From: a virus
Taxonomy: Duplodnaviria; Heunggongvirae; Uroviricota; Caudoviricetes
Strand: one strand, 5' to 3'
IMG/VR virus record: IMGVR_UViG_2534681832_000017
Location: 1 to 37,193 of that record
DNA length: 37,193 nt
Part shown: piece after piece, positions 304 to 36,880 of the stretch
Layout of the letters: each line of letters begins with the position of its first letter
How positions within the stretch are numbered: position 1 is the first letter of the stretch
Program-made: the position numbers and the translations under genes
Notes under the pieces: generated by a model
Seen by the model: only the letters and a program-made list of their open reading frames with translations
What the model was told of the DNA's origin: nothing
The model's database searches: none

Positions 304-768
304 ATGCTCGCGCTTATGCGTAAGTCTCTGGGTTCTCTTCCTGCTGTTCCCCTGAGTGTTGAAAATCCCATTGAATTAACGCTGACCGACTGGGTACGTG
401 ATGGTAGTGCTCCACAGGGATTTCAAATGGGGGATGCGGCAGAACTTAAGGCAGTGCTTGAGGATGGCGGTATTGCCCGAGTGAAAAAGCAGGATTTGGG
501 AAGCGATGAAATTTCCACACACCTGGAAGCTGGCAAGCTCGTCACTAAGTTGGCACTCGACTGGCAGAACCGCATTAAATTTACACTGGACCATAACTTC
601 AGCCTTACCAGCGTCAAATTTGCGGATGAATTGCTTGAGCAGAACTCTGATATTGATAGTGAAGATGTTGCGCAGCGACTGGACGCAGATTTCTTCCTGT
701 TGACCAGTGAAATTTCGTGCCTGGTTGATGCTCTGGTAAATGCCCTTGGCGGAGAGGCTAAGCAGTGA
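304..768 (+). CDS. RdgC-like recombination-associated protein, C-terminal half only (possible truncated hrdC-type gene)
   Basis: ORF track; recalled RdgC C-terminal signature ([25 protein letters not shown]...LGGEA); in-frame similarity continues upstream only to a stop at 226-228, so the N-terminal half is missing; GTGA overlap with next gene. Confidence 0.45.
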
Positions 769-3700
769 AAGAGCTGTGCTATGGATCTGTTTGCAGTGGA
801 ATTGAAGCCGCGAGTATTGCCTGGGAACCGTTGGGTATGCGTCCGGCGTGGTTTGCTGAAATCGAGCCTTTTCCATCGGCCGTTCTTGCGCTCCGCTGGC
901 CCCATGTTGCCAACCTTGGCGACATGAAAAAACTTGCCAAAAAAGTCTTGGCTGGGGAAATCGAATCCCCTGACGTGCTCGTCGGGGGAACACCATGTTT
1001 TACCGCGGGGCATATGGTTCTTTGTAAAAATGGCTATAAACCAATAGAAAATGTTTGCCCTGGTGATTACGTAGTCAGTCATCTCGGGCGGTTACAACAA
1101 GTAAAAAGAGTTGGTTCAAAAATAGCTAATACGGGGTTACTTAATGCCGTTGGGCAGCCTTTAGGTATAAGAACAACCAATGACCATCCCTTCCTGGCTG
1201 TTCGGTGGAAAGCCCAAAACACCCGGAAAAATGGCACATATTTTAAGAGAGAGTTGTTGTCTGAACCGGAATGGCGAGCAGCATGTGATATGCCGGGATA
1301 TCAATGGTGCGCTCTAACTAATTTCAATATTGCATTTCCAGATATTTGTTCTCGGTTCTTGTCTGAAGAACAGGCTATGTATCTTGCGGGCGCTTATGTT
1401 GGCGATGGATATATTAGGAGATGGAGAGGTAAATCTAAGAAGGCGGTTGTTTTTGGCATAAATTGCCAGAAATTGAGAAAGTTTCATTGCCGCATACCAG
1501 AAAACATATTTTCCGTGGCAAGCGAAATCCGAGGGAGCATCAAAGTAACCTTGAATGATACGTGTTATGCCAATTGGCTTAATGAACATTTTGGCGAGTT
1601 AAGCCATGCTAAGCGTATCCCTGCATGGGTGATGTCGCATCCATTGCGTCATGTGTTTTTACAAGGCTATCTTGATACTGATGGGACACCAAGTGGTAAA
1701 GCGGGATTTAGAATTAATAGTGTTAGTTCTGCGCTTGCTTGGGGCGTTGCGGGGTTGTCACAGACTTGTGGTTATGTTTCTTCGGTCAGCTTTATTGAAG
1801 TTGAGCCCAAAAAAGTGATCGAGGATCGCGTGGTAAATCAACGGAATTATTATCAGGTAACAATCTGCCCGCAGAAATTGTCACGTAAATCAAGATTGGC
1901 TCATGGAATGCTTTTACGAACAGTCAAAGAGTTTAAATCGGTAGGCCTAGATACTGTATACAACATAGAAGTCGAAGGTGATCATTCCTATATCCTCAAT
2001 GGTGCGGTGGTCCATAACTGTCAGGCATTCAGTATCGCGGGATTACGTGGTGGGCTTGATGATGAGCGTGGCGCGCTAACTTTAAAGTATGTGGAGCTTG
2101 CAAATGCAATTGACGACAAACGGGCTGAGTCATTTCTCAAACCAGCCGTTATCGTCTGGGAAAATGTCCCAGGAGTCTTGTCATCGGCAGATAACGCCTT
2201 CGGATGTTTCCTTGCCGGATTGGCTGGAGAAGATGTGCCATTTGAACCAGGTGATCGACCTGAATCAGGAAAAAGCAACGCGTTCTGGCGGTGGGATGGC
2301 AAAACCGGTTGCCATGTTCCAAAGTGGCCGCAGTGTGGTTGTATTTATGGACCGCAGCGAAAAGTGGCTTGGAGAATCCTTGATGCCCAATACTTCGGAG
2401 TGGCACAACGACGCCGACGCGTGTTTGTTGTCGCAAGTGCTCGAACAGATCTCGATCCCGCAACGGTACTTTTTGAGTTCGAAGGCGTGCGCCGGAATAT
2501 TGCGCCGAGCAGAGGCGAGGGGAAGGAAACTACCAGATATACTTCAAACATCGCTATCAGAACTTGCGATGATACAAACATAATTGCCATGGCACATGGG
2601 CAAGGAGGGGCTGAGATAAAAACCGATAATTCGGCACCAACTTTGACATGTAACCATGAAGCACCAATTGTATTGCTCGGCGACGGTAGAATGCGCCGTC
2701 TTACCCCTGTCGAATGTGAAAGGCTGCAAGGTTTTCCTGATTGGCATACGTTGATCCCTACGGAAAAGCGTAAAAAAGTTAATTCAGATGAACTGGCATA
2801 TCTGCACAATCACTATCCAGATTTAAGCGAAGAAGAGGCCGCAATGCTTGCAGCTGACGGACCGCGTTACAAAGCGATCGGCAATAGTATGGCAATACCA
2901 GTAATGCGCTGGATTGGCGATCGGATTACTAAGGCCGTATGTCGGCAGAAAGAAGGAAGTGAAACAAAAGAGCGAAAAGTTAAACCAGCGGCAGAATTCG
3001 AACGGTCCATATTCAAATGGGCTGGTGGAAAATTTGGTGTTCTGGAACAAATCTTTCGCTATTTGCCAGAAGGGAAGCGCCTGATTGAACCTTTCGTTGG
3101 TGGCGGAGCTGTCTTCATGAATGCCGGATACCAGGAAAATCTGCTAAATGATGTGAATGCTGACCTGATTAACTTTTACAAGACTCTGCAACGCGAGGCG
3201 CATTCACTTATCACTCTGGCACATCGTTTCTTCCAGGACTACAACACACAGGAAGGATACCTGGCAGTACGGAATGCGTTTAACAAACAAGTCTATGATG
3301 ATTTACATCGCGCAGCGGCGTTTTTGTTCCTGAACCGACATTGTTTTAACGGATTGACGCGTTACAACCAGGCCGGTGAGTTCAATGTCGGTTATGGGAA
3401 GTATAAAACTCCGTATTTCCCATTACAGGAGATGGAAGCCTTCCTCGGTGCGGAAGGGCGGTCTGAGTTTGTATGCGGTGATTTTGCAGCGGTGATTGAA
3501 GCTGCCGGAGAAGGAGATGTCATCTTTTGCGATCCGCCGTATGAACCGCTTCCAAATACAGAGGGATTCACGAACTATTCCGGTCATGACTTTAAGTTTG
3601 AAGAGCAAAAACGCCTGGTGTCTCTGTTGACGGATGCTCATCGTCGAGGTGCAAAGGTTCTCATTACTAACAGTGGCGCGCCAAACATCAGAGAGCTTTA

Positions 3701-3806
3701 TCATGACAGTGGCTTCAGAGTGGAACCTCTTTTTGCCAGACGTTCTGTGTCTTGTAAGGGGGACACTCGAGGTGTAGCTCATGACGTTTTTGGTATATTG
3801 CTCTAA
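765..3806 (+). CDS. dmt: bifunctional DNA methyltransferase: N-terminal C5-cytosine MTase (interrupted by intein) fused to C-terminal Dam-type N6-adenine MTase
   Basis: GTG start coupled to upstream gene; C5 motifs: GGTP|CQAFSIAG (PCQ, split by insert), [28 protein letters not shown]; Dam motifs: [24 protein letters not shown]. Confidence 0.85.
996..2018 (+). mobile_element. intein (341 codons) with LAGLIDADG homing-endonuclease domain, inserted at catalytic Cys of the C5-MTase PCQ motif
   Basis: Insert begins CFTAGHMV (Hint block A-like), contains TTNDHPF (block B-like), [12 protein letters not shown] (1380-1415) and [11 protein letters not shown] (1656-1688), ends NGAVVHN followed by Cys+1 (2019); excision restores [12 protein letters not shown]. 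Confidence 0.8.
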
Positions 3807-3813
3807 TAAATTT
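3797..3813 (+). promoter_or_regulatory. C1-type operator (exact 17/17 match to ATTGCTCTAATAAATTT), overlaps dmt stop codon
   Basis: Exact match to the asymmetric 17-bp P1 C1 operator consensus as I recall it. Confidence 0.6.
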
Positions 3814-3987
3814 ATTAGTGTAATATCGCCTCAATGAATCGTGATTTATAGAGCGATTTAGCTGTTAGCCGCGACAGGCGCGGCGGTAAGCATGGCTGGG
3901 CCTAGTCCTCCCAGACAAACCACCGAGTTGCCAGGTTGACCATGCGCCTAAGTGGCAACGCCGAAGTGCGTTACGAGCTTCCAGTTT

Positions 3988-4013
3988 GCCCATCTTCGGG
4001 TGGGCGTTTTTTT
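3988..4013 (+). terminator. rho-independent terminator
   Basis: Stem GCCCATC/GGTGGGC with TTCG tetraloop followed by T7 run. Confidence 0.6.
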
Positions 4014-4479
4014 CAGGGTTTTCGTCATGGTTAGCGACTTTGCGGCGGTTTAGAAACTGACCATTAAAGTAAATGCAAACGATGATCTGATGATGGTAGC
4101 GGCCTAAGAAGCCAGATGCCACGGGGTATGAGTCGTCCCCCGTCAAAAAAATCGACCGCAGAGTGTCCCCGTCTGTGTATTAGGGAACGGGGAGGCACAA
4201 CAGGTAAGGGCGCTGGTGTGATTAACCAGATGAACGAGAAGGGGCCATCTGTTGGTCAGCGTCCTTTCCTGTTGCGTTTTCTTTTCAGCGTAACAGCGGT
4301 GCTTAACAGCACTTTGGGTACAGTTCCACGAATTTACGGGTATATCCCGTCATGCTGAAGGCGCTAATCACGCTGGAAGCCAGGGTTGTGCATCCCCTGT
4401 TACCGAATTGCAGCTAGGGCGCGGTGCGCCGAAAAGCATACGGAGGTGGAAGCCCTCGCCGGAGACGTACCCGGCAAGT

Positions 4480-4555
4480 GATGGTGTAGCTCAGCGGTTA
4501 GAGCAGTTGGCTGTTAACCAACTGGTCGGTAGTTCGAATCCACCCACCATCGCCA
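4480..4555 (+). tRNA. tRNA-Asn (anticodon GUU)
   Basis: Cloverleaf: acceptor GATGGTG/CACCATC, D-arm GCTC-AGCGGTTA-GAGC, anticodon loop CTGTTAA, T-loop TTCGAAT, discriminator G, encoded CCA; one A-C mismatch in T-stem. Confidence 0.8.
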
Positions 4556-4560
4556 CTTTA

Positions 4561-4647
4561 GGGGAGTTAGTCCGTAGGGGTAGCGGGGTAGACTGTAAAT
4601 CTACTGTCATTGCGACTCGGGTGGTTCGACTCCATCACTCCCCACCA
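4561..4647 (+). tRNA. tRNA-Tyr-like (anticodon GUA), type II with long variable arm; non-canonical D-arm
   Basis: Acceptor GGGGAGT/ACTCCCC 7 bp, anticodon arm GTAGA-CTGTAAA-TCTAC, variable arm with GTC/GAC hairpin, T-arm GGTGG-TTCGACT-CCATC, encoded CCA; D-stem only forms with a 3-4 nt linker after the acceptor stem. Confidence 0.55.
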
Positions 4648-4651
4648 CATT

Positions 4652-4727
4652 GCCGATTTAGCTCAGTTGGTAGAGCAGTCGCTTTGTAAGCGAATGGTCA
4701 GCGGTTCGATCCCGTTAATCGGCACCA
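4652..4727 (+). tRNA. tRNA-Thr (anticodon UGU)
   Basis: Acceptor GCCGATT/AATCGGC, D-arm GCTC-AGTTGGTA-GAGC, anticodon loop TTTGTAA, T-loop TTCGATC, encoded CCA; resembles E. coli tRNA-Thr(UGU) from memory. Confidence 0.85.
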
Positions 4728-4731
4728 ACAT

Positions 4732-4807
4732 AACAGGTAAGAGCATTCTCCCTTATGGGGCCTGGCTTAAATGCATCGAGTGCTCTTACCGTTGTGATGA
4801 AGTGCAG
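4732..4807 (+). repeat. extended hairpin element A (stem about 13 bp, 35-nt loop, conserved 3-prime tail)
   Basis: AACAGGTAAGAGCA pairs with TGCTCTTACCGTTG; tail GTTGTGATGAAGTGC shared with elements B and C. Confidence 0.5.
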
Positions 4808-5098
4808 ATCTTAGAAGCAACCAGAAGATAAGCATCTGGCTTCACAACATAAACCGCAGGAACGACCAATAAACGGTAGTCCGTATGGAGAACACCCCGT
4901 TGAGGAAGAGGCCTGGCCGGAACCGTAACCGGCGACTGGTAATGTGTGTAAATGGAGCGAAATATGTGGGCGTTTAACGGGATACGGGTTGTAACAGCGA
5001 TTATTAACGGCGAACTTAAGTATTCACGTTTCGAGACAAATGAACGTGATGGGAAATGTATTGGTGTGCGGTTAGTAAGAGAATACGCATAACAACTA

Positions 5099-5203
5099 CA
5101 ACGTTGAGAACACTGGCGTAACGGGGTCATATCCCAATCTACGAATAAATGTTGCGTTGCCGCGTGACAACCAGTGTTCTCAACATTGTGGTGAATGCAC
5201 AGG
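5099..5203 (+). repeat. extended hairpin element C (perfect 14-bp stem, 54-nt loop with nested CGTA...TACG hairpin)
   Basis: GTTGAGAACACTGG (5103-5116) pairs with CCAGTGTTCTCAAC (5171-5184); loop contains GTAACGGGGTCATATCCCAATCTAC; tail ATTGTGGTGAATGCAC. Confidence 0.5.
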
Positions 5204-5373
5204 CTGATGTGCCGCAACTACAGTAGTGCGCGCTTTGCGGGGCTTGCTACAACCCTGTGTCGGAGTTCAGCACCGACCATCACAGTTTGATTCTCTGGCA
5301 TGAGCATAACGCTGAAATAAGTCCAGTCTGGTGCGGTCTGATCACCCGCCGTTAGCTCCACGAAACGGAGCAC

Positions 5374-5461
5374 GTAACAGGTAAGAGCATTCTCCTGTAA
5401 CGGGTTCATATCCCAATCTACAGGTCCACCAAGAATGCTCTTTCCGTTGCGGTGAATGCGG
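5374..5461 (+). repeat. extended hairpin element B (11-17 bp stem, nested CCTGTA...TACAGG hairpin)
   Basis: AAGAGCATTCT (5383-5393) pairs with AGAATGCTCTT (5432-5442); loop contains GTAACGGGTTCATATCCCAATCTAC; tail CCGTTGCGGTGAATGCGG. Confidence 0.5.
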
Positions 5462-5604
5462 CTAAGCGCACGCGGGGAAATGGTTATATCTGTCCATTAT
5501 TTCTCCTTGTTTCCACGTCCACGGTGGATAACCAGCCAAAGGACACCGGGAGGAACCCGGCACCGCAATCTAATAAATATGTCACTTTTATTGAGGGATA
5601 ACCA

Positions 5605-6039
5605 ATGTTCGGTAAATTGTTCGGCAAGAAAGTCGCTTCTGCAAAAGTAGAGCTGAAAAAAGTTGAGAATCGCGATCTGATGGAGGCCATTATCGGTGGC
5701 TGTTTGTTGGTGTCTGCCGCTGATGGTGAAATCGAAAAAGAAGAAACAGCGAAACTTGATCAGCTTGTCCGCTCTAATCCGCGTCTTAGTCATTTTGGTA
5801 ACGAAATTACTGCAACAATTACCCGCTTTACCGAGCAACTGGAAGCTGGCTTCCGTGTTGGTCGCATGAATATCCTTCGCGAAATTGAAGATATCAAAAA
5901 CGATCCAAAAGAAGCGGAAGAAGTATTCGTTAACATGCTGACAATTGCAGAAGCGGACGGTGAAATCGAGCCAGCAGAACACAAAGTACTGGAAGAAGTA
6001 GGCCGTCGTTTAGGTCTTCGTGTGGAAGATTATCTGTAA
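5605..6039 (+). CDS. tciA: TerB-like (tellurite-resistance family) protein
   Basis: ORF track; SD GAGGGA; repeated ADGEIE motifs (SAADGEIEKEE, IAEADGEIEPAE) typical of TerB-like proteins; position matches my recollection of P1 tciA. Confidence 0.6.
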   Translation: MFGKLFGKKVASAKVELKKVENRDLMEAIIGGCLLVSAADGEIEKEETAKLDQLVRSNPRLSHFGNEITATITRFTEQLEAGFRVGRMNILREIEDIKNDPKEAEEVFVNMLTIAEADGEIEPAEHKVLEEVGRRLGLRVEDYL

Positions 6040-6203
6040 TGGCAAGCAAGGCACGTATCGCAATCGCCATTGGTTTTCTCTTGCTGTCCGTGCTGGTGGA
6101 TTTCACCAGCACAATCCTGTCAGTTTTATCGGACGGGGCGTTGGTGGCAGTAGCTGTAACATTGGTATGGCCGATATTTAAAACAGCTTCGAAGGATCAG
6201 TGA
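6039..6203 (+). CDS. small membrane protein (54 aa)
   Basis: TAATG overlap with upstream gene; hydrophobic MASKARIAIAIGFLLLSVLV; not in ORF track (under 60 aa). Confidence 0.45.
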   Translation: MASKARIAIAIGFLLLSVLVDFTSTILSVLSDGALVAVAVTLVWPIFKTASKDQ

Positions 6204-6310
6204 TGGGCTTCTGGGATTTTGCTGACAAGTATCCAATTGTTCTCATTATTATTGTTGCCATAGTTGTAGGCGGCATTGTTAGCGCCATTGAAGCACTTAG
6301 TAAACAGTAA
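6203..6310 (+). CDS. small membrane protein (35 aa)
   Basis: TGATG overlap with upstream ORF; single hydrophobic helix PIVLIIIVAIVVGGIVSAI. Confidence 0.4.
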   Translation: MGFWDFADKYPIVLIIIVAIVVGGIVSAIEALSKQ

Positions 6311-6313
6311 TCC

Positions 6314-6389
6314 GGCCCCTTAGCTCAGTGGTTAGAGCTGGCGACTCATAATCGCACGGTCACCGGTTCAAGTCCGGTAGGGGCCACCA
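6314..6389 (+). tRNA. tRNA-Ile2-like (anticodon CAU; body resembles E. coli ileX rather than tRNA-Met)
   Basis: Acceptor GGCCCCT/AGGGGCC, D-arm GCTC-AGTGGTTA-GAGC, anticodon loop CTCATAA, T-loop TTCAAGT, encoded CCA. Confidence 0.75.
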
Positions 6390-6669
6390 TATTTGGTTGT
6401 AACACGGCGTCTGGCACATGCGTCGTTAGCGGTCTGGTGACGTTAAAGGGGTAACCTTTCCCCTAGCTCAGGCAACAAACCAGGTAGCCGGAATGTGCAA
6501 GCCCCGTTCATAGCGTCGGACTGCGGATTCACCATCCTGGCGATTCGGTGTGACAGCCGGGAAGAGTCCGGCGCATTAATCCTGATTTTCTGGTGATGAC
6601 TCATATCGTTAGGAGTGATTTGAGTATGCCGATTATATCTGACATTCAGCACGCCTGGGTGGAGTGCTA

Positions 6670-35566: not shown

Positions 35567-35748
35567 TGTTTTTTAACTACCGATGTTACATTGAGCCTGA
35601 CCTCTTGCGCCTTGAGGCATTTTCGGTTTATGCTTATCAGGCACCTCATTAAAACGGGTGCCGGGATTGGCCTCCCGCTTAAGTCTAAGGCGATACAGAC
35701 GCCGCTCGCGTCTTTTTTTGTATCGGCGTACACGCACACCTCTACAAT

Positions 35749-35824
35749 GGTGGGCTGTATGGGGCTACCTTCGGGTAGGCTGGTTACCTTGGACGCCAGT
35801 AAGGCCAACTCCGTACAGTCCACC
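35749..35824 (+). ncRNA. c4-type antisense RNA, module 3 (divergent specificity)
   Basis: Same scaffold as c4 module 1 (GGTGGG...TTCG stem-loop...GCCAGT...GTCCACC) with compensated stem CTACC/GGTAG; b-prime CCTTGGA (35787-35793), a-prime AGGCCAA (35802-35808). Confidence 0.5.
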
Positions 35825-35884
35825 GCCAGCAAGATTGGTCTCTTCTGCGGTGGTTACATACCAACGTCTAAGGAGGCTGCCAAT

Positions 35885-36566: not shown

Positions 36567-36753
36567 GTATTTTTAAGTCGCGAATGCTATCTTTTCGCAT
36601 CATATTGACCTTTTAATCGTTCAGGCTTATAGTTCCGCCGTCGTAGCAAATTCTGCGACCGGGTTTAGCAGCCTGAATGTTAGTGCGGACAACCGCAGAT
36701 ATCCGATATTGCGGTATTTTTGTGTCCGTAAAACCGCGTTACGCCCAAATTAT

Positions 36754-36830
36754 GGTGGGGCGTGATGGGGAGGCTTCGGCCTGCTGGTTTCACTAACGCC
36801 AGTCTGCTAACCCCGTCACGTCCTGCCACC
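36754..36830 (+). ncRNA. c4: c4-type antisense repressor RNA, module 2 (altered specificity)
   Basis: 77 nt, identical scaffold to module 1 except b-prime CACTAAC (36791-36797) and a-prime CTGCTAA (36804-36810), matched by targets TTAGCAG / GTTAGTG upstream and in the icd leader. Confidence 0.65.
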
Positions 36831-36880
36831 TGTTTAGCAGCGGGTAGCAGGTTGTTAAACCTGTTAGTGAGGCCGTAACT

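Follow-up and report, generated by a model that had tools for sequence, protein, structure and literature searches.

The ban leader and its hairpins

This analysis concerns a set of long RNA hairpins, A to D, in the leader of the ban operon on the 37,193-nucleotide virus record IMGVR_UViG_2534681832_000017, the whole of which is referred to as the window. The window derives from a P1-family phage or plasmid, and its positions 4100–5620 are 94–99% identical to P1, P7, RCS47, and Ro157c2YLVW and to hundreds of P1-type plasmids. The homologous stretch of the P1 record follows dmt and the C1-controlled ban promoters, which sit just upstream, and its features are ordered "dicF-like region," trnA, trnT, plp and upl (minus strand), tciABC, trnI, and ban. 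The gene order of the window is that of P1, which assigns the hairpins to a leader of ~1.8 kb transcribed on the plus strand. The coordinates of the features are collected in Table 1.

Table 1. Features of the ban leader in the window (z, folding energy compared with shuffled sequences).
Feature	Position	Strand	Description
ban operon leader	3800–6660	+	region 5' of ban
Untranslated part of the P1-type ban leader	3800–5600	+	three tRNAs, four H hairpins, two S modules
dmt, end	3806		
Intrinsic terminator	3987–4013	+	end of the region named dicF-like in the P1 record
H-D, fourth hairpin	4196–4276	+	arms CACAACAGGTAAGGGCGCTG / CAGCGTCCTTTCCTGTTGCG; z -5.2; upstream of tRNA-Asn
Mini-hairpin ACGGGUAUAUCCCGU	4337–4351	+	z -2.6; 4 of 200 shuffles equally good
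tRNA-Asn, tRNA-Tyr, tRNA-Thr	4480–4727	+	same strand and leader as the hairpins
H-A	4729–4796	+	CAUAAC-A-GGUAAGAGCAUUC ... GAGUGCUCUUACC-GUUGUG; -32.6 kcal/mol; z -5.6
Short domain after H-A	4791–4853	+	closed by GUUGUGAUGAAG / CUUCACAAC; carries the tail of A
H-C	5095–5192	+	stem ACUACAAC-G-UUGAGAACACUGG / CCAGUGUUCUCAA-C-AUUGUGGU; -45.2 kcal/mol; z -6.6
Inner hairpin of C	5118–5142	+	GUAACGGGGUCAUAUCCCAAUCUAC, common to B
S module 1	5183–5289	+	helix P1, UGUGGUG (5187–5193) with CAUCACA (5278–5284); the tail of C is its 5' end
H-B	5373–5451	+	CGUAAC-A-GG-U-AAGAGCAUUCU ... AGAAUGCUCUU-U-CC-GUUGCG; -33.4 kcal/mol; z -6.4
Inner hairpin of B	5397–5421	+	96% identity to the inner hairpin of C
S module 2, STnc100-like	5444–5572	+	closing helix UGCGGUG / CACCGCA; the tail of B is its 5' end
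tciA, start	5605		
tRNA with CAT anticodon	6314		
ban	6664		

RNA folding confirmed hairpins A, B, and C where the first-pass annotation of this DNA had placed them, and the arm sequences quoted there are right. None of 200 shuffles was as stable as A, B, or C, and the minus-strand folds were weaker every time. The fourth hairpin, D, had been overlooked and was found by repeat finding and folding. The stems of the window hairpins are 19–22 bp long with one bulge or mismatch, which amounts to about two near-continuous turns of double-stranded RNA. Hairpins A, B, and D match one scaffold (CAYAAC/GUUGYG, a bulged A, GG/CC, and ~10 bp of AAGAGCA.../...UGCUCUU), whereas C has the same layout with a stem sequence unlike that of A and B and carries two apical hairpins. 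Within the window, the earlier claim that the stems differ by compensatory changes holds only for C compared with A or B. It does not hold between A and B, which have an identical 5' arm, AACAGGTAAGAGCATTCTCC, and are thus homologous copies. The inner hairpin that B and C have in common had been described exactly, and a search for its sequence gave no chance matches. Hairpin A begins 2 nt past the CCA of tRNA-Thr, and its apical payload, CCCUUAUGGGGCCUGGCUUAAAUGCA, is also found in lambdoid prophages and, under other stems, in Felix O1 and contig L148. The apical part of D contains UGUGAUUAA, the conserved loop of an adjoining module that resembles a transfer-messenger RNA (tmRNA) tag.

The hairpins had been described as followed by a conserved tail. 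A 12-nt sequence, RTTGYGRTGAAK, does occur at the 3' ends of three hairpins; the 15-nt consensus proposed for the tail was mis-registered and fits A only. The 12-nt sequence has exactly three occurrences in 37 kb, all at hairpin 3' ends, compared with 0.15 expected. Its GUUGYG pairs with the 5' CAYAAC, and part of the tail is therefore the basal helix of the hairpin and no appendix to it. The UGYGGUG-AAU of the tail is also the start of a downstream structured module. The short domain that carries the tail of A fails on folding energy alone (z -1.9, with 10 of 200 shuffles equally good). A mini-hairpin upstream of tRNA-Asn had been regarded as a relative of the hairpins, but its fold is weak (Table 1) and the kinship has no support.

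The open reading frames (ORFs) across the hairpins had been considered shadow ORFs, and substitution patterns agree. Changes by codon position number 3:4:8 and 2:9:9 in the plp- and upl-like ORFs, which thus have no third-codon bias and no coding substitution pattern, compared with 1:1:23 in tciA. The plp and upl of P1 are probably not genes.

The H hairpin family and its lambda member

The window hairpins belong to a large family outside Rfam, whose members we term H hairpins. The family has a ~20-bp stem, usually CACAAC-A-GGUAAGAGCA.../...UGCUCUUUCC-GUUGUG, around an exchangeable apical payload of 25–60 nt. By stem, the 78 hairpins collected fall into 20 classes, and by payload into 44. The main scaffold occurs with 27 unrelated payloads, and four payloads recur with different, compensated stems. 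Rfam searches of the window and 22 related loci at gathering and permissive thresholds placed no family on any hairpin. When viral contigs were scanned for the scaffold pattern, 71 distinct GGUAAG-type sequences came up, of which 70 fold at -23 to -42 kcal/mol; the remaining one is a chance match (-9.4 kcal/mol). A stem-unbiased rescan was anchored on a 22-nt sequence 3' of the hairpins, and this sampling gave at least 20 unrelated stems, each still paired over ~18–22 bp. Pairing is kept in these relatives, and selection on RNA structure, as first proposed from the window, is strongly supported, chiefly by these relatives and less by the window copies themselves. Duplex-energy and hairpin-count controls were noisy because random windows of structured regions also pair well, and the stem-class count, an ungapped test, and pair counting were used instead. 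The non-Watson-Crick cells in the stems are G•U in 69 cases and A•C in 8, under a scoring that mildly favors G•U. This excess, together with the more stable plus-strand fold, points to selection on one RNA strand, the plus strand.

Complete Escherichia coli genomes hold the family at 923 places, 655 on plasmids and 268 chromosomal. In each of the three chromosomal places examined, the element comes directly after a tR'-type terminator, between the Q antiterminator gene and the holin gene of a lambdoid prophage. The K-12 cryptic prophages DLP12 and Qin, scanned with the aim of using the published K-12 RNase III maps, contained no copy. Among the viral contigs sampled for the tail motif, 11 of 100 sites lie within 300 nt of a tRNA gene, compared with 2.5% of random positions, and the nearby tRNA genes are on the same strand in 31 cases and on the opposite strand in none. 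The suggested link between the hairpins and the tRNA transcript is consequently weak as regards proximity, although the strand is always the same. Genes upstream of the tail motif include Q antiterminators and CI-type repressors; at the CI-type repressor sites the motif comes after a nutL-like boxB, with no long hairpin.

Comparison of the window with P1, P7, D6, SJ46, RCS47, and CMS-2020a reveals that the differences between genomes start and stop at the hairpins, with breakpoints in the arms or in the common inner hairpin. The stretch from C to the 3' arm of B is swapped in P7 and D6 for a tRNA-Ser cassette and a G•U-containing hairpin. CMS-2020a is without hairpin A. SJ46 has a C-5'/B-3' hybrid with its crossover in the common inner hairpin, and the fold is lost (z +1.1). 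The first hairpin of P1 has a different, fully complementary stem, GGUAAGGGUA/UACCCUUACC, and a payload with a perfect T-arm sequence. Breakpoints of this kind, a single scaffold with 27 unrelated payloads, and the presence of the same modules in P1-type, lambdoid, Felix O1-like, and rV5-like phages would fit arms that act as DNA, as recombination linkers or as the ends of cassettes or of elements like miniature inverted-repeat transposable elements (MITEs) that shuffle modules while RNA folding is incidental. We consider this very unlikely. The preponderance of G•U over A•C and the stabler plus strand indicate selection on one RNA strand; stems have been replaced entirely with pairing kept, unlike linkers for homologous recombination; the three chromosomal copies examined and those in the phages inspected are in phage leader or tRNA regions; nearby tRNA genes share the strand; and the lambda copy accumulates as RNA. 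The earlier suggestion of a mobile RNA element remnant is not supported as such, but modules have been exchanged between phages at the arms.

Two specific mobile-element candidates were rejected. A dispersed repeat or MITE would be expected in scattered contexts and both orientations; the three chromosomal sites examined all have the Q–holin context, and the tRNA genes near tail-motif sites in viral contigs have a single orientation. An integron attC site (cores RYYYAAC/GTTRRRY) was dropped because GUUGUGA is unlike the core and the evidence favors one RNA strand.

The same modules turn up in virulent phages that have tRNA arrays. In phage rV5 (positions 1395–1575 of locus L135), a tRNA-Ser is followed by a hairpin enclosing a UAAUUAAGCGAA.GCCGGAAGCAGAACCGGAU module, which in lambda comes after the small RNA LPR2. 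In Felix O1 (positions 1480–1635 of locus L134), the gene after an A-type hairpin is tRNA-like and unannotated, with a G3•U70 pair and a CCA end. In Massilia sp. TS11 (locus L239, ~80 nt upstream of locus position 4563), a whole tRNA gene sits within the long stem that precedes the S module; the arms of the stem, CACACA-GCGGCCATAGCTCAGCAGGTAGAGCA...TTCGAATCTCGTTGGCCGC-TGTGTG, form a stalk flanking the tRNA.

The contents of the payloads raise the idea that the hairpins arose by decay of tRNA genes or mimic tRNAs in the manner of bacterial Y RNA (YrlA), and that tRNA enzymes or Rsr, not RNase III, recognize them. Several payloads have T-arm-like hairpins, such as AGAGUUCGACUCUCU and GUGGGUUCAACUCCCAC, the first hairpin of P1 has GGGUUCGAAUCCC and an anticodon-arm-like hairpin, and the Massilia copy encloses a whole tRNA. 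We give this explanation little credence, since ARAGORN and the Rfam models for tRNA (RF00005) and YrlA (RF02553) have no match on A, B, C, or D, no canonical T-loop is present in the four window payloads (UCAUAU in B and C), and most payload classes contain nothing tRNA-like.

The sequence of the arms bears on a role in transcription, in which the hairpins would shield the leader from Rho or serve as Nus-factor sites. Judged by the generally known consensus sequences of boxA and boxC, the common 3' arm (CAGUGCUCUUUCC-GUUGUGGUG) is similar to a boxA of the rrn type, UGCUCUUUAACA, with a GU-rich boxC behind it. The 3' arms are rich in pyrimidines, and the leaders are long, untranslated, and in some phages beside nutL-like boxB sites. 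Such a role is nevertheless highly improbable because the boxA-like stretch is itself paired in a stem of great stability, the stretch is missing from many family members, whose stems are unrelated, and the Q-modified polymerase in the lambda late leaders is already resistant to termination.

The lambda genome (NC_001416) has one family copy, at 44787–44862, directly after tR'. LPR2 is a lambda RNA detected as a single ~63-nt band in the lytic cycle, enriched on Hfq, and encoded near 6S RNA; its only partners in RNA interaction by ligation and sequencing are PreS and fliC, LPR2–PreS chimeras were found, and its authors suggested that it is a sponge and did not present it as a member of a family (Silverman et al., bioRxiv 10.1101/2024.10.31.621285). 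The LPR2 northern probe P844, whose sequence the supplement gives, is the exact reverse complement of lambda 44816–44850, inside the hairpin. What is left of the lambda hairpin once the basal helix and the bulged A are taken away (GG...CC) measures exactly 63 nt, the reported LPR2 size. The lambda copy is thus LPR2, and the earlier proposal that the hairpins are small RNAs is supported by homology. Hairpin B is of the commonest scaffold type, that of LPR2, with a bulged A and a U•U mismatch. The LPR2 payload (44810–44830) pairs with PreS/LPR1 (33983–33963) through 15 Watson-Crick and 4 G•U pairs in 21 positions, with 2 mismatches, and only 2 of 300 random lambda segments did equally well. This complementarity fits the sponge suggestion. 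The complementary site in PreS is just 3' of the published PreS seed-probe region.

The S modules and neighboring features

The tail opens a separate second RNA module that the first-pass annotation missed. This S module is a domain of ~105–130 nt with a 7-bp closing helix, two hairpins, and complementary loops. In S module 1, UGUGGUG is followed by AAU, the hairpin GCACAGGCUGAUGUGC (5197–5212), a variable middle, and the hairpin GUCGGAGUUCAGCACCGAC (5259–5277), and the loops GCUGA and UCAGC are complementary. S module 2 is directly upstream of tciA. The 22-nt sequence GUGAAUGCRCAGRCUGAUGYGC is unchanged in the genomes of many orders of Proteobacteria and in a few metagenome-assembled genomes labelled as other phyla, and a second conserved hairpin, GCCGGAGAUCAGCACCGGC, followed by CAC, is found 60–150 nt downstream of it. 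In the closing helix, P1, the 7 nt ending in the tail GUG pair with the 7 nt after the second hairpin in 127 of 140 unique copies, and this helix has ~40 sequence combinations among the unique copies. In a 50-copy alignment, 98.2% of the cells are paired compared with 25–50% when the partners are slid, and there are 77 double-change cells compared with 17 in shuffles. Compensatory cells number 17, 20, 17, and 7 in the four free columns of the closing helix, and the one variable pair of the complementary loops covaries (GC 39, GU 9, AU 2).

A covariance model of the S module, R1, was built with 5183–5289 in the training set and 5444–5572 outside it. The training copy scored 75 bits and the independent copy 27 bits (E 3e-5). 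The Rfam model STnc100 (RF02076) matched 5448–5567 with 38 bits (E 5e-6 to 6e-7) over model positions 31–147, and it had no match on 5183–5289. We name the S modules STnc100-like, rather than members of STnc100, because the score is below the curated gathering score of 47 bits and S module 1 is unmatched. STnc100 and PasD are related prophage small RNAs, both reported close to Q antiterminator genes, and PasD is beside Q genes in >98% of cases (2026 preprint).

The core of the S module, GTGAATGCGCAGGCTGATGCGC, occurs within a CRISPR spacer between repeats GTTCCCCGCAGGCGCGGGGATGAACCG in Halomonas olivaria (AP019416.1, locus L265, ~1139–1160). This spacer suggests that hosts target the conserved S-module sequence of phages.

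A reading frame at 4075–4107, in a conserved module at ~4030–4195, reads GCA AAC GAT GAT CTG ATG ATG GTA GCG GCC TAA. The encoded peptide, ANDDLMMVAA, closely resembles the E. coli tmRNA (SsrA) tag ANDENYALAA. The same 10-codon tag-like frame is present in lambdoid late leaders and in Felix O1, and its variants include ANDDVVLMAA, ANDDLMLMAA, ANDEQFLAVA, ANEEMYLAVA, ANEEVYLAVA, and ANDNVFLAVA. The final alanine codon is synonymously variable, all three stop codons are in use, and a hairpin with compensatory changes comes after the frame. The Rfam tmRNA model scored the module weakly (24–26 bits). ARAGORN at default settings detected no tmRNA or tRNA-like domain at the module; at 80–90% thresholds it called permuted tmRNAs with exactly these tag-like peptides, but it made many false calls too. 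No acceptor or T-arm partner was identified for the module.

Three other features of the window were recorded. A 161-bp segment at 4934–5094 is missing in P1; its insertion point is exactly the 5' base of hairpin C. The segment holds a 46-codon ORF on the plus strand (4952–5092), annotated as "hypothetical" in Ro157c2YLVW, with a second ATG at 4964 after GGAG. The dmt ORF (765–3806, 1013 amino acids) encodes a Dmt methyltransferase much longer than that of P1. Its cytosine-methylase motif GGTPC-QAFS is interrupted between C and Q by an insert that starts with CFTAGHMV, has LAGLIDADG-like blocks, ends with VVHN-C, and looks like an intein. Matches above the Rfam thresholds at 9159–9365, 35641–35830, and 36627–36833 identify three C4 antisense RNA genes, two c4-a1b1 target sites, and an isrK-like RNA, so that the window holds more than one immI-type antirepressor control region.

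Proposed maturation of the leader and comparison with known systems

We read the untranslated ban leader as an array of structured RNAs that is cut by RNase III and consists of LPR2-homologous hairpins and STnc100-like modules, and we put the probability of this reading as a whole at roughly 0.55. Our confidence is high in the structures, their covariation and strand, the homology to LPR2, the relation to STnc100, and the exchange of modules at the arms. The leader would be a chain of closed RNA domains on the plus strand. The H hairpin, a scaffold composed of the 6-bp CAYAAC/GUUGYG base, the bulged A, ~13 bp more, and the exchangeable 25–60-nt payload, would form first. RNase III would cut its stem near the bulged A, releasing the upper hairpin as a stable small RNA, ~55–85 nt in the window and LPR2 in lambda. 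The same cut would separate the flanking tRNA precursors and S modules. The freed GUUGYG strand would then lengthen the closing helix of the S module by pairing with a CACAAC downstream of the module. GUUGYG has two possible partners, the CAYAAC before the hairpin or, in extended form, the CACAAC after the next module, and the second pairing is legible in lambda (GUUGUGCUG ... CAGCACAAC) and in the covarying closing helix. The released hairpins may act by base pairing of their payloads, some of which resemble tRNA arms.

The steps of this scheme differ in strength. The idea of RNase III or other processing sites, also put forward in the first-pass annotation, is plausible given the size of LPR2, stems of at least 20 bp, and the title of a 1988 paper. 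That paper, by Daniels, Subbarao, Blattner, and Lozeron in Virology, reportedly describes RNase III sites in the Q-dependent late transcript of lambda. Processing sites of this transcript reportedly lie in a hairpin just beyond the 6S terminator, the place of the lambda copy, and the positions may coincide. For RNase III itself as the enzyme that cuts the H stems, we see the odds as even. Accumulation of the P1 copies as RNAs is predicted, and action of the payloads in trans is a tentative proposal.

Several observations weigh against this account of the leader. The strong terminator at 3987–4013 is between the ban promoters and the hairpin array, and transcription of the array therefore needs read-through or an unmapped promoter. 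SJ46 has lost C and B and its hybrid is unfolded, which indicates that these copies are dispensable there. A search of the window and the first 50 kb of the closest phage for RNAs complementary to the payloads of A–D found none above shuffles. These three points argue against an essential role. The STnc100 match is under the curated Rfam gathering score, and S module 1 is no stabler than shuffles (z +0.7), its support being comparative, from covariation. Trimming by RNase E and exonucleases may also take the place of cutting by RNase III.

The SJ46 loss and the lack of targets found for the window payloads would fit hairpins that acted purely in cis, as processing or insulating elements that keep tRNAs, small RNAs, and mRNAs apart or as a block to exonucleases or RNase E, with the excised hairpins as by-products and the payloads as neutral filler. 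The great variability of the payloads (44 classes in 78 hairpins), the abutment of hairpins on tRNA ends, as where A follows tRNA-Thr, and the Massilia stem around a whole tRNA also fit such a role. It is hard to reconcile with the payload of A, which is kept under differing stems in P1-type, lambdoid, and Felix O1 phages, or with the lambda payload, which is complementary to PreS at 19 of 21 positions and forms chimeras with PreS on Hfq. A purely cis function is on balance unlikely, and we favor the array of LPR2-homologous hairpins and STnc100-like modules.

An extension of that account, which is speculative, regards H hairpins as a programmable small-RNA scaffold of temperate and some virulent phages of Proteobacteria. 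The conserved stem would be recognized and cut by RNase III, similarly to the recognition of a pri-miRNA by Drosha, and the swappable payloads would be antisense sponges, with LPR2 against PreS as a possible case, or mimics of tRNA arms. The ban leader of P1 and the late leader of lambda would then be non-coding RNA operons in which H hairpins, STnc100-like modules, tRNAs, and the tmRNA-tag-like module are matured together.

The structures, hairpins and S modules, are new members of two kinds of phage small RNA that have already been reported and are barely understood. The analysis adds that LPR2 belongs to a scaffold-plus-payload family, that the tail is part of a widely conserved STnc100-like module, and that plp and upl are probably not genes. 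Even in P1, which like lambda is one of the best-studied phages, this stretch still carries the doubtful plp and upl as annotated genes, an annotation that its reading as a small-RNA array corrects. LPR2 gains a family of dozens of variants that makes its function accessible to comparative and genetic tests. The STnc100-like module, with its near-invariant 22-nt core, is found in prophages of many bacterial orders, and the maturation scheme for phage leader RNAs is concrete and testable.

The closest known system is LPR2, which has the scaffold CACAAC-A-GG-U-AAGAGCAUUG ... CAGUGCUCUU-U-CC-GUUGUG on the transcribed strand of a long phage leader, as in the window. Window hairpin B is of the same type, and hairpin A is the same except for a U-A pair in place of the U•U mismatch. 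The payloads of LPR2 and the window are unrelated, and the window has a four-copy array beside tRNA genes in a P1-type ban leader. Accumulation as a discrete Hfq-bound RNA is known for the lambda copy and predicted for the P1-type ones. In STnc100 and PasD, as in the S modules, a closing helix with GUG at its end leads into AAU and a first hairpin, and the last hairpin, CCGG...CCGG, precedes CAC. The module at 5183–5289 differs from STnc100 in being of a form with near-invariant GUGAAUGCGCAGGCUGAUGCGC ... GCCGGAGAUCAGCACCGGCCAC that extends well beyond Enterobacteria, and no description of this form was found in Rfam or the accessible literature.

The resemblance to YrlA (RF02553) lies in a long end-to-end stem combined, in some payloads, with a tRNA-like T-arm. 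The YrlA model does not match the hairpins and gives only weak hits across true tRNA genes, and the window payloads are without a T-loop. Long stems that separate functional RNAs in polycistronic transcripts are also found at the RNase III sites between T7 early genes and in the processing stalks of 16S and 23S rRNA. The H hairpins have no sequence relationship to either, and the H hairpin itself accumulates, at least in lambda. The likeness to the rRNA stalks is in those relatives of the H family in which the stem surrounds a whole tRNA.

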